Source: a virus (Duplodnaviria > Caudoviricetes). From it: 64,000 bases of DNA. Positions 10,196 through 57,123 of the stretch are shown here, in pieces. A program made the translations under genes and the position numbers. The DNA lies in IMG/VR virus record IMGVR_UViG_3300011727_000029, positions 10,347 through 74,346 of that record, one strand, 5' to 3'. Each line of letters begins with the position of its first letter. The stretch's first letter is position 1. The notes beneath the pieces were generated by a model, which saw nothing but the letters and a program-made list of their open reading frames with translations, ran no database searches and was not told where the DNA came from.

Positions 10196-12135
10196 TATTT
10201 TCGAATTACGCGAATGAACTCGCCTATATTCTCTTTAGCATTTTGGTATGGTAATTTATTAAGAATGTAATATTGTTGTTCTTGTTCGAAGTAATACACA
10301 ACATCAAAACGTAAATTTTGAATGTCGACTGGTGTAAGATTCTTTAATTTGATAAAATGTTTGCGGGAGTTATTTATCAATGAATCAAGTGAAAGATACT
10401 CATTTTTTATGATTTCTGAAAATGATAAATCAGAATAATCTTCTTGTGCAAAACCTGGTACTTTTATACTATCATTTATTCTTTCATAGGAAAGATTAAT
10501 TTCATTTTGATTTTCTTTTGATCTTATGAAATAGTACCTATTTGAAAGATCTTTGTATTTTATCTCTGTAGTTGGATTTCCATTTTCGTCTTCTTTTTCT
10601 TGAACTTCCTTTTGCCATATCATATAGACATTTGAATCAAATTTTTGAGTAGAGCTTACAGGAAAATTAATTTTGTCTTTTTCAACAGTGTAAATTTTTG
10701 ATTGAATAGAATCAACCTCATCTTCTAAATTTTGATTGTTCACTTTTAGGAAGCCATCATTATAATTTGAATTTTCAGTATTGTATTTGTATTTGAAGTT
10801 ATTTCTTTGAGCATAATTATTGTAAACATATTCTTCGTTAATACGCCCATTAAATTTATCAGTCCAATTAACAACTTCAGCGTTTATTCTTTCATCAGTT
10901 GTAAGAAATAAAACCTTATTATCTTTTAGAGGTATAGGAGTTAATCCAAATTGCCAAAGGAATTCTTTGAAAAAATCTTTTATTCCGAAATCTATTAACG
11001 CGTCTTTAAAACTTATAACTCCAAGAGAAATCTGATAAATGGAAAAATTGAAATTATCAATAATCAATTCATTTAATCCCCAGCTTGGCCTATTCTCATA
11101 AATTTCAACATACACAAACGAAATTACGTCTCCAATGTTAACAGAAAAATTTATTTCTAAATCTTTATTGTCCATGTATATTTTCTTATTAGTTTGATTA
11201 CCATTAATACATAGAGTTAAATTTGGTGTTCTATTATCTATTCTTCTTGGATCTGTTTGATCATTAGGTTCTTCCCAATAATACTTTGCTAACCCATCTC
11301 CTTTATATTTAATATTGTAAGTTCCGGCCTTTTCAACTTTATATTCTTTATCATTTAGCCATTCTCCTTCAATGGCATTGAAACCATTGTTTAAATCTAT
11401 ATATGAAATTCCATCATCATACAAAGGGTTTACAAGGTTTAAAACTGAACCGGTTGAAACTAATACTGGATCTATTGTAATCTCTTCAGAAATTTCTGGA
11501 GATGGTTTTGGATAAGTCATCCACCAATTAAGATACTTAGGGTTTGAAAAAACAGAGCCAATAAATGTGAATCCAAATGTTTCTTGAATTTTTTCTATCA
11601 AATATTTACATCTTATTGATGGGATAAGATATTCTATGTTTACAAAATATTCTCCCCTAATTGATAGATGAGATTTTCCATTATAATCAGCTATGATGTA
11701 TCTATAATATTCGTTTTGAAAAGAGTTATAAACAGAATATAAATCTTTGTTATGTTCTGTCTCAGAAATATCCAAATCAGTACCTATTGTCTTATTTTCA
11801 ATTGCCTTAAATAAATCAATTATTCCAGAATATAGATTTAAATTGTAACTATCATCTGTATTATTTACAATTGCCCAACCGTTATAAATAACCGGTATTG
11901 TATCTTCAAAAAGTGATGCGTTAATTTTCTGATACGGTAGAATAGAAGTATCTCCAACCAATCCAAGCCCCTCAAATATCATTGTATTTCTTTTTGTTCT
12001 TGGAAGTGAAATAGTATTTGTGAAAGTGGTTTGCCGACTTTCTACATCTCCAATATCATTAACTTGAAAATTGTATTGAATTGGATCGCTTTGATTGAGT
12101 TCGCAAAGCTGATTATTTAGATAAAGTTCTTTCAT
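10195..12135 (-). CDS. Minor tail (hub/Tal-like) protein
   Basis: 646 aa, adjacent to the tape measure gene. Confidence 0.6.
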   Translation of the reverse strand: MKELYLNNQLCELNQSDPIQYNFQVNDIGDVESRQTTFTNTISLPRTKRNTMIFEGLGLVGDTSILPYQKINASLFEDTIPVIYNGWAIVNNTDDSYNLNLYSGIIDLFKAIENKTIGTDLDISETEHNKDLYSVYNSFQNEYYRYIIADYNGKSHLSIRGEYFVNIEYLIPSIRCKYLIEKIQETFGFTFIGSVFSNPKYLNWWMTYPKPSPEISEEITIDPVLVSTGSVLNLVNPLYDDGISYIDLNNGFNAIEGEWLNDKEYKVEKAGTYNIKYKGDGLAKYYWEEPNDQTDPRRIDNRTPNLTLCINGNQTNKKIYMDNKDLEINFSVNIGDVISFVYVEIYENRPSWGLNELIIDNFNFSIYQISLGVISFKDALIDFGIKDFFKEFLWQFGLTPIPLKDNKVLFLTTDERINAEVVNWTDKFNGRINEEYVYNNYAQRNNFKYKYNTENSNYNDGFLKVNNQNLEDEVDSIQSKIYTVEKDKINFPVSSTQKFDSNVYMIWQKEVQEKEDENGNPTTEIKYKDLSNRYYFIRSKENQNEINLSYERINDSIKVPGFAQEDYSDLSFSEIIKNEYLSLDSLINNSRKHFIKLKNLTPVDIQNLRFDVVYYFEQEQQYYILNKLPYQNAKENIGEFIRVIRK

Positions 12136-22476: not shown

Positions 22477-22590
22477 CTCCCTTGCCAGGATTCGAACCTA
22501 GATTTGTCATAGACCACTTATGAACGTCCGTCACGATCGGAACCAATTATGCACACTAGGGCATAGCGTCTACCATTCCGCCACAAGGGA
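22477..22590 (-). ncRNA. tRNA-like RNA (Leu-type D arm) with 8-nt anticodon loop and oversized variable region
   Basis: Acceptor TCCCTTG/CAAGGGA, D arm GCGGAATGGTAGACGC, T arm CTAGG-TTCGAAT-CCTGG; 114 nt. Confidence 0.7.
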
Positions 22591-51908: not shown

Positions 51909-53243
51909 TTATGCTGATTTATTTTTAATATTAAAATAATTTGTTCGCGCGAAATCATGGAAATATTTCTGGAAGAAATATCGACCACCATCGAAATAAT
52001 CCATTTTATAAATTTCACGATCTTTTTTAAGTGTATGCGGTTTGTGACTTTTTTCGTCAATAGTTGCAATTGTGCAATCATTGATAAAATTAGGACATCC
52101 CTCTTTTGAAATAGAAAGATTTGGATATTGTGCAAACATTTGATTCATCAATAATCTACTATTTTCAAAATGAAGATTTGAAGTATTTGGCTGTATTTGT
52201 TTTGGCTGTAAATCTAAATAAGAACGGATTAATGAGTATGCAGAATCGTGTATTGATTCGTAACCAACAACACCCTCTGTATTTCCTGAGCTATCACCTG
52301 TAACGTACAGGATAGAACTAGGAAATGTCATCTTAATTTCTTTACATAAATCTTTCAAAACTTGTTTACCTCCAAACTCTTTAAGAATATTAATAAAACT
52401 ATGCGGATCTCCCATGTTTGGAGATTTTTGATAAGCTGTACATGTTAACGGGTCCTTATTAAAATCAAATGACAAGTAAACTTCATACGTTGGAAGAAAT
52501 GGCAATTTTTCTTTTACGTGTTTATCATAATTGAAAGCATAAAGCCACATATTATCGTTTTGCTCAATTCCCCATTCACCAAGTACATAAATTCTATAAT
52601 CAGGATGAGATGGGGGAATTTCCATCATAATTTCTTTGTATTCCTGGTCAATGAATTTATTATCCTTGAATGTAGTAATCAAATTAAACATTTTCTTAGG
52701 ATTGTAACGCCCTCCTTCTTCAGGAGAATCCCAAAAACGTTTTTTAATCCAATGCTTTTCATGTATCGGATTAAACGACAAAATGATTTGATAAAAACCA
52801 TCAACATGCCCACGAATACGACGATCTATTTCATTGAAATCAGCTTCAGAAAATTCAGTTGCTTCCTCCATCCAAACCTTTGTAACACCTGAAATTGATT
52901 TTAATTTCTCTGGGTCATCTACACCAGCAAGAATTATTTCATTTCCGTTTTTCGCATGAAATGACATAGTTGTCGATTTAAATTGCACATCAAGTCTGTA
53001 CAATTCAATTTGCGATTTCAGTAATGCGAAAATCGAATTTCGTAAAGTCGTTCCAACTTTTCTTAACGCTAAAATCTTTTCTCTATGTCCGTACGGATTA
53101 AGCAACCAGAACAATACTTTTTGCCCTACCGTCCAACTCTTTGATGAACCGGAACCACCACGTAAATTAACATATCTATGCGTTGATTGAAAAAACGGAT
53201 AGTATGCTTCATTGATATTATCTTCATGGAGTAGGGCACGCAT
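51909..53243 (-). CDS. terL: Terminase large subunit (PBSX-type)
   Basis: LRGGSGSSKS Walker A, WMEEATE Walker B, SFNP, SFDFN nuclease motif. Confidence 0.95.
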   Translation of the reverse strand: MRALLHEDNINEAYYPFFQSTHRYVNLRGGSGSSKSWTVGQKVLFWLLNPYGHREKILALRKVGTTLRNSIFALLKSQIELYRLDVQFKSTTMSFHAKNGNEIILAGVDDPEKLKSISGVTKVWMEEATEFSEADFNEIDRRIRGHVDGFYQIILSFNPIHEKHWIKKRFWDSPEEGGRYNPKKMFNLITTFKDNKFIDQEYKEIMMEIPPSHPDYRIYVLGEWGIEQNDNMWLYAFNYDKHVKEKLPFLPTYEVYLSFDFNKDPLTCTAYQKSPNMGDPHSFINILKEFGGKQVLKDLCKEIKMTFPSSILYVTGDSSGNTEGVVGYESIHDSAYSLIRSYLDLQPKQIQPNTSNLHFENSRLLMNQMFAQYPNLSISKEGCPNFINDCTIATIDEKSHKPHTLKKDREIYKMDYFDGGRYFFQKYFHDFARTNYFNIKNKSA

Positions 53244-54997: not shown

Positions 54998-55726
54998 TTA
55001 ATAAATTCGTTCTATTTTGTTCGAAAACTCTTCACCTTTTACAATGTTTTCATTTTCGTTTATATCAAACCTTTGACAAAAAGCTGCTTTTGCGTTATGA
55101 TCATCAAAGGATAACATTACATAAGCGGTCATATCTTTTGCTTTTTCTATTGCTTTTTCTTTTATTTCTTCTTTTGCCTGTTTTACGGCTTCTTTTCTTA
55201 CTTCTGCATCAAAGGCTTTTTGTTCTGCAACTGGTTCGTAAAGAGATTCTATTTCGTTAGCAATTGAATTATTTTCTAATTCAGGAACTGGGACACCGTA
55301 ATAATTCAAATCAAATTCATCAAGTCCCGCGTTCTTGTAATCGATGTCATGGAGTAATTGTCGCATTAATTCGTCGTCAAGTTCTGTACGGCTTCGAGTT
55401 TGGAAAACGTTTTGCTCTTTTTCGGTTTTTAGATCTAGTTCAATCTTTTCAACTTTAACCTCGTAATCTTCTGAACCATCATACCTGTTAATTACATCTA
55501 AAGCCATTAAGCGTTTATGGCCATCAATCAAATTACCCGTTGTCTCATTCCAAACAATACCACCCAAAAAAGCTACATTCTTAAAATTGCGTTTAATTTC
55601 ATCAATTGCTTGTTTTGAATGATTCTTAGGATTATAAGGAGCAAATTTGATTTGTGAACGTTTGACAATAATTGTTTCTGATTGTCTAACTTTCATATCA
55701 GGATTTTTAAGAATTCTGTCTGTCAT
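54998..55726 (-). CDS. ParB/Srx-like N-terminal domain protein
   Basis: APYNPK...IVWN..TGNLIDGHKRL motif. Confidence 0.85.
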   Translation of the reverse strand: MTDRILKNPDMKVRQSETIIVKRSQIKFAPYNPKNHSKQAIDEIKRNFKNVAFLGGIVWNETTGNLIDGHKRLMALDVINRYDGSEDYEVKVEKIELDLKTEKEQNVFQTRSRTELDDELMRQLLHDIDYKNAGLDEFDLNYYGVPVPELENNSIANEIESLYEPVAEQKAFDAEVRKEAVKQAKEEIKEKAIEKAKDMTAYVMLSFDDHNAKAAFCQRFDINENENIVKGEEFSNKIERIY

Positions 55727-56387
55727 AATCGAATAATAGTTTTTGAGATAAAGGGTAAGCTTTTAGAATCTTTTCCAAATCATCCGGGTAATTTTGTCTT
55801 AACCAAACAAAAACATCAGTATCGAAAAACACCCCAACTGATCTATTTTTCTTTTTGCCGTAATTGATTGGTTTTGGTAATTTGTTTTTTTCTATGTAAG
55901 TCAATACATCACCATCACGCCAATTTGAAAGGGGGTAAACATTATTCGTTGTACTAATCGCTTCTAATTCGTATTGTCTTAACTTAATTCGACGATTCAT
56001 GTTATCAGCTTTCTTTTCACCAATAAAAGCGTATTGAATGCCTGTTTTTATTTTCATAGCTTCAATAACATCCTTCAATTTGATTAATCTGATTTTCTGA
56101 GGCACGCAAAACATACCTGAACGATGAATTTGTGATAATATCCAATGAGGGACCTCAATGAATTTTACATTTGAATATTTAGCTTGACTAAATCGAATGT
56201 ATTTGTTTACATGTTCAAGATCTTTTACGAAATACATAAAAATACATACAACCTCTTCAAATTCTTTAGCCATTAAGTCAAGTAAAGCGATTGAATCTTT
56301 GCCACCTGAATAAAAAAGTATTGCACGATTAGACTTTTGACGAATCGTGCGAATTACTTTTTTACTATGTTCTAACGGTGTCGACAT
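55707..56387 (-). CDS. Phosphoadenosine phosphosulfate reductase-family (PP-loop) protein
   Basis: FYSGGKDS PP-loop, G.KKAD...RR and YPLSNW motifs. Confidence 0.88.
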   Translation of the reverse strand: MSTPLEHSKKVIRTIRQKSNRAILFYSGGKDSIALLDLMAKEFEEVVCIFMYFVKDLEHVNKYIRFSQAKYSNVKFIEVPHWILSQIHRSGMFCVPQKIRLIKLKDVIEAMKIKTGIQYAFIGEKKADNMNRRIKLRQYELEAISTTNNVYPLSNWRDGDVLTYIEKNKLPKPINYGKKKNRSVGVFFDTDVFVWLRQNYPDDLEKILKAYPLSQKLLFDYDRQNS

Positions 56388-56389
56388 AA

Positions 56390-56551
56390 TTAACCACCAG
56401 CCATACCGAACGCTCTACGCATATCGTATGTACGTTGTCTACGTGTTACAAATCGACCACCTCTACCAACAGCACCGCCACTAGATTGTGATGCTGCTCT
56501 ACGTCCACCTCTATAGTTTGACGTAGCGAATGTTGTTACTCTTCTTCTAAC
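56390..56551 (-). CDS. 53-aa Arg/Gly-rich basic peptide with GTT first codon (not in ORF track)
   Basis: VRRRVTTFATSNYRGGRRAASQSSGGAVGRGGRFVTRRQRTYDMRRAFGMAGG*; in-frame TGA immediately before GTT; no in-frame ATG/GTG/TTG until codon 44; fills the ASCH-PAPS gap and stops 2 nt before the next ATG. Confidence 0.7.
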   Translation of the reverse strand, partial: VRRRVTTFATSNYRGGRRAASQSSGGAVGRGGRFVTRRQRTYDMRRAFGMAGG

Positions 56552-56569
56552 TCAGCTTTGTATTTAAGA

Positions 56570-56956
56570 TTAAACATTACTTTTTTGAACTGGAGCTTCT
56601 AAGATCTCACCTAATTTATATTCGATAACTGCAGCAAAGTAATCTTCACCTTTATCATCTTTCAAAATAATTAGCTCGTGAGTTTCTTCATCTTCTAACA
56701 ATAGAATTCTTGCACTCTTGACCTTGACAATCATTTTAGGGCGTTTACCAACATAAGCACCTGTGAGAAATGTTATAGTATCATAGATTGCCGGTTCGAT
56801 GCCTTTGTCATTTTCAATTGCGAAACCTTCTTCGTCTACCTGGCAATACTTAACCATGTTATTAGGGCGTATTTCGCGCGTTTCAATTATTTTTGTACCA
56901 GCCAGAATTTTATCGAAAAACTCTTGTTTGATACTTAATGTTAGATTTTTACTCAT
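56570..56956 (-). CDS. ASCH domain protein
   Basis: LTLSIKQEFFDKILAGTK.IETRE signature. Confidence 0.88.
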   Translation of the reverse strand: MSKNLTLSIKQEFFDKILAGTKIIETREIRPNNMVKYCQVDEEGFAIENDKGIEPAIYDTITFLTGAYVGKRPKMIVKVKSARILLLEDEETHELIILKDDKGEDYFAAVIEYKLGEILEAPVQKSNV

Positions 56957-56977
56957 AATTCATAATGTTGATTTTTG

Positions 56978-57051
56978 TAGCGAGAGCCGGATTCGAACCG
57001 GCGACCTTCGGCAAGTTAAACCGACAAGCTAACCAACTGCTCTATCTCGCA
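56978..57051 (-). tRNA. Initiator-type (tRNA-fMet-like) tRNA with AAC (Val) anticodon
   Basis: T-GCGAGA/TCTCGC-T acceptor with U1xU72 mismatch, D stem GAGC/GCTT, anticodon stem TCGGT/GCCGA, loop TT-AAC-TT, T arm GCCGG-TTCGAAT-CCGGC, A73; 74 nt, CCA not encoded. Confidence 0.88.
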
Positions 57052-57064
57052 ATAATACTATTTA

Positions 57065-57085
57065 CAAATATAACTAATATATATT
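57065..57085 (-). promoter_or_regulatory. Putative late promoter of prophage 2 (AATATATATT-N3-TATATTTG)
   Basis: -7 box ends 13 nt before tRNA position 1; same extended motif upstream of other structural operons. Confidence 0.65.
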
Positions 57086-57123
57086 ATAATATAAATAATA
57101 CTCATGTTTTATCGCAAATTTTT

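Follow-up and report, generated by a model that had tools for sequence, protein, structure and literature searches.

The window analysed here, a stretch of 64,000 nucleotides (nt) of Caudoviricetes DNA (positions 10,347 to 74,346 of IMG/VR record IMGVR_UViG_3300011727_000029), is part of a 74-kb provirus record whose closest relative lies in a metagenome-assembled genome of Algoriella (Weeksellaceae, Flavobacteriales). It encodes a tRNA with the body of an initiator and the valine anticodon AAC (56978..57051) and, downstream of it, a 53-codon open reading frame (ORF) that begins with GUU (56390..56551); every gene of this region lies on the minus strand. The best explanation, which is considered highly probable, is that the tRNA is a dedicated prophage initiator that starts this client gene at GUU. 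An initial annotation, made from the letters of the window alone, had proposed a tRNA for a GUU-initiated gene, and that central interpretation is supported by the comparison of related loci.

The tRNA was called by ARAGORN as tRNA-Val(aac) at 56977-57051 and scored 54.7 bits with the Rfam tRNA model at 56978-57051 (cut-off 29). It measures 74 nt to A73, and the CCA end is not encoded. It carries a U1xU72 mismatch, G2:C71, C3:G70, A11:U24, A73, G29:C41, G30:C40 and U31.G39, and its anticodon loop reads UU-AAC-UU, with U at position 37. The 1:72 mismatch, the initiator determinants, the loop and the U31:G39 pair had all been pointed out in the initial annotation, and every detail holds by ARAGORN, Rfam and the sequence. 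The exact anticodon-arm pattern of the window returned no match when searched in viral contigs. A reading of the loop as a 9-nt loop with the anticodon UUA (an ochre suppressor) was rejected, since base 34 and the third base of GUN change together, and stop readthrough is unneeded.

For comparison with the host type, all tRNAs were extracted from the Algoriella genome that holds the sister prophage. The phage tRNAs were 77-83% identical to Algoriella tRNA-fMet; the elongator tRNA-Met was next best (67-70%), and tRNA-Val(UAC) reached 55-59%. The host tRNA-fMet also has a mismatch at 1:72 (C1xU72), and its acceptor stem, D arm, 27-30/40-43 stem and variable loop match the phage tRNA. Over bases 31-39 the host initiator reads G-CUCAUAA-C and the phage tRNA U-UUAACUU-G, a difference at seven of nine bases. 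Judged by sequence kinship, the phage tRNA is shown to descend from a host-type initiator tRNA and not from an elongator.

A survey of initiator features covered 30 distinct tRNAs of the family. Position 1:72 is unpaired in all 30 (CxA 17, CxU 9, CxC 2, UxU 2), A73 and G2:C71 are likewise present in 30/30, C3:G70 in 29/30 and A11:U24 in 28/28. The bases U31, U32, U33, A35, C36, U37 and U38 are invariant (n=30). Among the nine relatives found through the client peptide (see below), 98.9% of the cells of the cloverleaf are paired, and 11 pairs show compensatory changes. The initial annotation had cautioned that the atypical U37 and U31:G39 could mark a decaying tRNA; this caveat is rejected, since no member of the family deviates at U37, U38 or U31 and compensatory changes maintain the cloverleaf. 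The acceptor and D-arm determinants of the phage tRNA are initiator-like by these comparisons. The tRNA is not filed as a canonical initiator because its anticodon is AAC rather than CAU and the stack of three G:C pairs in the anticodon stem is missing. With elongator tRNA-Val it shares the NAC anticodon with A35, C36 and A73, which are the main identity elements for valyl-tRNA synthetase (ValRS), and it departs from that class in its 1:72 mismatch, in having U37 where a purine is expected and in its low identity to host tRNA-Val.

The anticodon of this tRNA and the first codon of the client gene were compared in samples collected from opposite ends of the locus. The first sample, 19 loci, was gathered from viral, genomic and metagenomic collections with the peptide as the only guide. 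All nine loci with a tRNA upstream of the intervening ASCH-like gene have a cognate GTN start and lack ATG: AAC is paired with GTT in the window, L005 and L011, UAC with GTA in L012, and GAC with GTC in L007, L008, L016, L018 and L019. The ten loci without a tRNA all start with ATG, and the tRNA pattern was not found in three ATG-type virus records (one of them 99% complete) and two whole host genomes. A second peptide-first sample of 80 more loci gave a cognate match in 76/76. For further locus search the broad peptide alignment was too divergent, and a narrower one returned only near-identical loci.

The other sample was drawn from the side of the tRNA. Viral contigs were searched for the odd anticodon loop together with the T arm, which yielded at least 107 loci, plus one from a second pattern (108); homology was then the sole means of locating the peptide gene. 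Among the matches listed, an in-frame cognate codon stands at the N-terminus in 99 of the 100 loci with a detectable peptide, split into 87 GAC/GTC, 10 AAC/GTT and 2 UAC/GTA; in eight further divergent or shortened loci among these matches the codon matches too. The sole exception among them is L116, which has tRNA(AAC) and yet an ATG-start peptide. The L116 phage retains another gene, the frame of which opens AGA GTT where relatives start a protein of about 230 residues with GA-GTT. The initial annotation had suggested comparing anticodon and first codon across loci with the ASCH, peptide and PAPS-reductase genes, and the outcome is positive: AAC goes with GTT, GAC with GTC and UAC with GTA, and ATG is found where the tRNA is missing. 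The contrary cases that it had named, GTT kept without a tRNA or starts that do not track anticodons, did not appear in the collected loci, L116 aside. In a tree of the adjoining PAPS-reductase-like gene, AAC arises twice and ATG twice, and the nearest kin of the window include AAC, ATG and GAC forms. Across the family, the matching of anticodon and first codon is shown by these comparisons to be more than chance.

The client ORF begins with GTT (56549-56551) directly after an in-frame TGA (56552-56554), and its first ATG, GTG or TTG is codon 44, exactly as had been described for this 53-codon frame at the outset. It thus has a start cognate to the anticodon and no usable AUG, GUG or UUG. A protein search returned a homologue of 52 residues (P0001), 78% identical to the client, the gene of which is flanked by ASCH and PAPS-reductase genes, has an ATG start preceded by AGGAGG and is without a tRNA. 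This ATG aligns exactly with the GTT of the window, and other tRNA-less homologues likewise start with ATG there. Codons 2-15 specify the same residues in L012, L006 and L001 and differ by one residue in L007, with changes that are mostly synonymous, which indicates that the N-terminal part upstream of any ATG is translated. On this comparative evidence the ORF is a real conserved gene, and the N-terminus of its product is under purifying selection. The first codon is under a constraint of its own: all 47 distinct GAC-type genes have GTC there, and only 8 of the 129 internal valine codons of those genes are GTC. Readthrough from the ASCH gene in the same frame was considered and rejected, as the window has three stops in between and relatives have the two genes in different frames. 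The peptide matched no family in Pfam or PHROG and had no usable match in the ESM Atlas. One clade of it is encoded on 415 or more viral contigs, and gut-type metagenomes are the source of many of these.

The sequence before the start is conserved as well. In 39 distinct start contexts, G is found at -5 in 37/39, C at -4 in 33/39, U at -3 in 31/39, G at -2 in 39/39 and A at -1 in 39/39, giving the consensus GCUGA, which in the window occupies 56552..56556. GA stands at -2/-1 in 1/6 of the ATG-type loci. In the tRNA, U38 and U37, the bases that replace A38 and A37 of the initiator, are complementary to G-2 and A-1 of the mRNA; once U33:A+4 and U32.G+5 are counted in, the complementarity of the loop spans 7 nt of mRNA in 8/9 tabulated loci. 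In E. coli, initiator position 37 was shown to pair with mRNA position -1 (PMC10018350). We infer that a longer helix between loop and mRNA would form in the phage system. The G and C at -5/-4 are not accounted for by pairing with the loop. A further motif, (A/T)TGTTTAA, is found 25-29 nt before the GTN start in most tRNA-type loci; in the window it includes the ASCH stop codon (spacer 56552-56580), and in several relatives the ASCH stop lies elsewhere.

The same complementarity could serve an RNA that does not decode at all. The loop of a merely tRNA-shaped molecule would then pair with 7-9 nt around the start as a trans-acting regulator, opening structure, guiding cleavage or blocking, and the host initiator would start weakly at GUN as a near-cognate event. 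The reach of the loop beyond the codon, to mRNA positions -2 to +5 and often -3 to +6, and the conservation of GCUGA beyond the needs of codon reading are in keeping with this proposal; in addition, the host initiator can pair with G1 (by wobble) and U2 of GUN, and the native E. coli initiator starts weakly at GUU (bioRxiv 10.1101/2021.05.25.445580). However, a pure antisense role needs no acceptor stem, and yet a 1:72 mismatch in four base combinations, A73, G2:C71, C3:G70, A11:U24 and a fully compensated cloverleaf are all kept, and the ATG start has been lost only where the tRNA is present. Such a regulator is considered improbable.

Less probable still, with only a slight chance of being correct, is an elongator-type tRNA that acts in the A site, the leader positioning a ribosome whose P site is empty or mimicked so that GUN is the first codon decoded. 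This could be likened to an internal ribosome entry site or to termination-coupled reinitiation after the ASCH stop, which is always close upstream; the conserved motif before the start and the loss of the initiator G:C stack from the anticodon stem would also suit it. However, host tRNA-Val(UAC) could read GUN, which would make a special tRNA and the matching of base 34 superfluous. In addition, a 1:72 mismatch disfavours binding of EF-Tu in bacteria, and the body of the tRNA is derived from an initiator and not from tRNA-Val. Coincidence or decay, in which the peptide gene would have died with the loss of its start codon and the tRNA would be a degenerating copy of an initiator or what is left of an integration site, could draw on the rarity of U37 and A34 in bacterial tRNAs and on the single mutation from GTG to GTT, but it is contradicted by the comparative data and can be given almost no credence, the arrangement with matching codons being kept in more than 100 loci, the peptide N-terminus being under purifying selection, the odd loop bases being invariant and the tRNA lying inside a gene string behind its own promoter box rather than at a prophage end.

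Several points weigh against a dedicated initiator. Three consecutive G:C pairs (29:41, 30:40 and 31:39) are a near-universal mark of initiators and are not kept in the family. The host initiator has all three, the window has G:C, G:C and U.G, and many relatives keep one G:C; 29:41 is A:U in 18 and G:C in 10 of the family tRNAs, and 31:39 is always U.G or U:A. The broken stack should weaken acceptance by the P site and by initiation factor IF3. An engineered initiator tRNA (i-tRNA) with the anticodon AAC initiates at GUU about 100-fold less well than initiation at AUG (bioRxiv 10.1101/2021.05.25.445580). The phylogenetically independent co-switches are also few, namely two between A34 and G34 and two between presence and absence of the tRNA, plus the two UAC loci, which are judged by their peptides to be separate (about 5-6 in all). 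With 2+2 contrasts a formal independent-pairs sign test cannot reach significance, so that the statistical weight comes from several concordant switches and long-kept matching and not from locus counts. Finally, some GTT-start ORFs beside a GAC tRNA in relatives loosen the strict one-to-one matching, although GTT beside GAC fits G34.U wobble.

As regards the amino acid carried, its formylation, the use of the P site and the purpose of the system, the following course is what we infer for a dedicated initiator. The prophage would supply a remodelled copy of a host-type tRNA-fMet. A TAnnTTTG promoter of its own would drive this tRNA as the leading element of the string of ASCH, peptide, PAPS-reductase, ParB and terminase genes, and the tRNA would then be excised from the transcript. 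Host ValRS would most likely charge the tRNA with valine, because A35, C36 and A73 are the main valine identity elements; such charging was shown for the engineered E. coli i-tRNA(AAC) (bioRxiv 10.1101/2021.05.25.445580). Formylation by the host formyltransferase (Fmt) is most likely because the 1:72 mismatch, G2:C71, C3:G70 and A11:U24 are kept. A phage Fmt was looked for in the provirus record and not found, so host Fmt would have to serve. The charged and formylated tRNA would be placed in the ribosomal P site on the GUU of the client gene, where U37 and U38 would pair with A-1 and G-2 to extend the codon-anticodon helix to 5-7 bp. Bacteroidota choose start sites without Shine-Dalgarno pairing. 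The extended helix may select the start site in such a host, and it may offset the missing third G:C pair of the anticodon stem. The client gene would be almost silent without the tRNA, and its output, being dependent on both mRNA and accumulated tRNA, would be delayed or thresholded. For the purposes suggested in the initial annotation, a lysogeny-tight switch or a way around host nucleases that cut tRNA-fMet, the comparisons yielded neither support nor contradiction. A persistently blocked (formyl-Val) N-terminus is also possible; in E. coli, formyl-Val ends are poor deformylase substrates (bioRxiv 10.1101/2021.05.25.445580).

In the window, the client gene alone among the ORFs of the coding strand looks coding and yet is startless; no other GTT-start gene was found there, matches to the motif GCYGAGTTAG were not above chance, and homologues of the extra client genes of relatives were not found. 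Ordinary table-11 ORFs cover 92% of the window, and neither an anticodon complementary to a stop codon nor in-frame stops, the marks of stop-codon recoding, were found, the anticodon being AAC. Relatives (L089, at about +1363 from the anticodon loop, and L063, L070, L093, L095, L100, L144 and others) have one or two more startless ORFs of 53-95 codons, which encode basic proteins (VRRKS..., VRKRKT...) and have GCYGA in front. The extra GA-GUN ORFs begin with GTC or GTT where the tRNA is GAC, only with GTT where it is AAC and with GTA where it is UAC, and by these features they look like further clients of the tRNA. A heuristic count of further basic startless ORFs was too noisy and was not used. 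Members of the AAC-type gut clade encode a protein of 211-231 residues that opens with GA-GTT, with no canonical in-frame start upstream (L067:6812-7504, L071:3118-3801, L139:6767-7450 and L249:1501). In the L116 phage (L249) the frame of this protein has no canonical start before codon 17, and its GTT is kept though the small peptide has ATG.

A wider reading, held tentatively and with less than even confidence, would make of these features a private initiation code of Bacteroidota phages. One tRNA, through a helix of 5-9 nt between its whole loop (U31-G39) and GA-GUN-AG, would set both the start site and the formyl-Val end for a small regulon, gated by accumulation of the tRNA and invisible to the start rules of the host, the helix replacing both the G:C stack and the IF3 check of normal initiators. 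As part of this same tentative reading, the regulon would consist of one gene in the window and, in relatives, of several small basic proteins and the protein of about 230 residues.

The module is also present in a cultured phage. Bacteroides phage BS-TP2 (PQ571275.1), the host of which is Bacteroides salyersiae BG8, has a tRNA-Val(GAC) at L250:1522-1594 and a GTC-start peptide at 2045-2239. The features listed for that stretch of the record do not include the tRNA(GAC), and the annotation of the gene product gp53 begins at an internal ATG (2078), which lies 11 codons past the GCUGA-GTC start (2045). In a blastn search of the window locus against cultured phages, matches were at the tRNA level only (Lak and Vibrio phages).

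The locus of the window runs, on the minus strand, from the TATATTTG box through the tRNA, the ASCH-like gene, a 19-nt spacer ending in GCUGA, the 53-codon ORF and the PAPS-reductase-like and ParB-like genes to two unknown genes and the large terminase. The TATATTTG box (57065..57072), 13 nt before position 1 of the tRNA, matches TAnnTTTG, which we take to be a promoter element (the -7 box) of Bacteroidota. A TAnnTTTG box is found in 31/43 distinct upstream regions of the family, mostly 8-13 nt before the tRNA, compared with 4% of random 60-nt windows, and its position just before the tRNA fits the tRNA as first product of the transcript. The ASCH-like gene (56570..56956) encodes 128 residues and was identified through phrog_625 (E 5.9e-11); its homologue in BS-TP2 is annotated as an ASCH domain protein. 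A search of the window's ASCH protein against viral contigs confirmed no relatives. An ORF of 118-132 aa occupies the ASCH position in every family locus examined. The distance from the ASCH stop to the GTN start is mostly 15-34 nt in family loci, 5 nt in six and 19 nt in the window. The client gene, with its GUU start at 56549..56551 assigned by covariation and by alignment to the ATG of tRNA-less homologues, encodes an Arg/Gly-rich protein of 53 residues that ends in Gly-Gly, with the stop TAA at 56390-56392. Directly downstream lie the PAPS-reductase-like (PP-loop ATPase) gene (55707..56387; PF01507, E 3.4e-14; phrog_424), the ParB-like gene (54998..55726) and, further on, the gene of the terminase large subunit (51909-53243), the matches of these last two being phrog_9353 and phrog_620 and, for the terminase, PF04466.

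The pair of PAPS-reductase-like and ParB-like genes before the terminase (54998-56387, minus strand) is conserved in all family loci, with or without the tRNA, and resembles the IbrA/IbrB-type pair of many prophages. The client peptide nearly always ends in Gly, often Gly-Gly, and the PP-loop ATPase gene is always next to it, which recalls carrier proteins with a C-terminal Gly that are activated by adenylating enzymes; the likeness may be no more than a lead. A second tRNA-like element of 114 nt (22477-22590, minus strand) scored 34.7 bits with the Rfam tRNA model and received no ARAGORN call. Its acceptor, D and T arms are good, about 40 extra nt lie in the anticodon/variable region, and the anticodon stem seems to close the 8-nt loop CCUAGUGU; its fold energy is not better than that of shuffled sequence. 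A match to the Staphylococcus small RNA S774 at 57032-57120 (minus strand) has an Rfam score of 27.3 bits, below the cut-off of 48, and was rejected as a side effect of the initiator-like tRNA, because that model ends in the 5' part of an initiator tRNA gene.

To our knowledge, bacterial cellular and viral genes start with one initiator tRNA(CAU) on AUG, GUG or UUG. If the proposal is true, a second initiator owned by a virus, with a start codon of its own, would amount to a naturally occurring alteration of the genetic code in initiation. Gene callers would miss or shorten the client genes, as the gp53 of BS-TP2 exemplifies, and the client family is abundant. The phage system would also provide a direct handle on start-site choice in Bacteroidota and, for synthetic biology, an evolved answer to weak engineered orthogonal initiators, consisting of bases 31, 32 and 37-39 and the GA leader. 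A full-text literature search on natural, phage-encoded or alternative initiator tRNAs returned engineered systems only, of which i-tRNA(AAC) with GUU in E. coli comes closest; no natural precedent was found for an orthogonal initiator with a private start codon, and the only descriptions found were of laboratory designs.

Compared with tRNA-fMet of the Flavobacteriales/Bacteroidales host type, the phage tRNA is alike in C/U1xU72, A73, G2:C71, C3:G70, A11:U24, the 27-30/40-43 stem, the variable loop and the T arm. It differs in having AAC (GAC or UAC in relatives) and not CAU, in U32, U37 and U38 in place of C32, A37 and A38, and in the replacement of G31:C39 by U31.G39 or U31:A39, which breaks the three-G:C stack. 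It is also phage-encoded, probably carries valine and would serve one gene in the window and a few in relatives.

Older engineered initiator anticodon mutants read GUC. The i-tRNA(AAC) engineered for E. coli raises initiation at GUU alone, and the products have Val and formyl-Val N-termini (Hutvagner et al., bioRxiv 10.1101/2021.05.25.445580). The engineered and the phage systems share an initiator body, a valine anticodon and a client that starts with the complementary valine codon. The engineered tRNA changes the three anticodon bases only, whereas the natural one is also altered at 31, 32, 37, 38 and 39, and the natural clients, unlike the engineered design, have the conserved leader GCUGA with its matching GA at -2/-1. 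A resemblance also exists to the extended initiator pairing of A37 with U-1 (Hollerer and Jeschek, 2023; PMC10018350), since position 37 faces -1 in both. In the phage system, however, the predicted complementarity reaches U38.G-2 and often also U33:A+4 and U32.G+5; in place of a mild preference there is invariance.

Finally, the phage tRNA may be compared with the suppressor tRNAs that accompany stop-codon recoding in crAss-like and Lak phages. The suppressors alter the reading of the phage's own genes and make their translation dependent on a phage tRNA, as the tRNA described here would. The present case calls for no reading of in-frame stops; the suppressors act in elongation on stop codons, whereas the tRNA described here has an initiator body and would act on the start codon.

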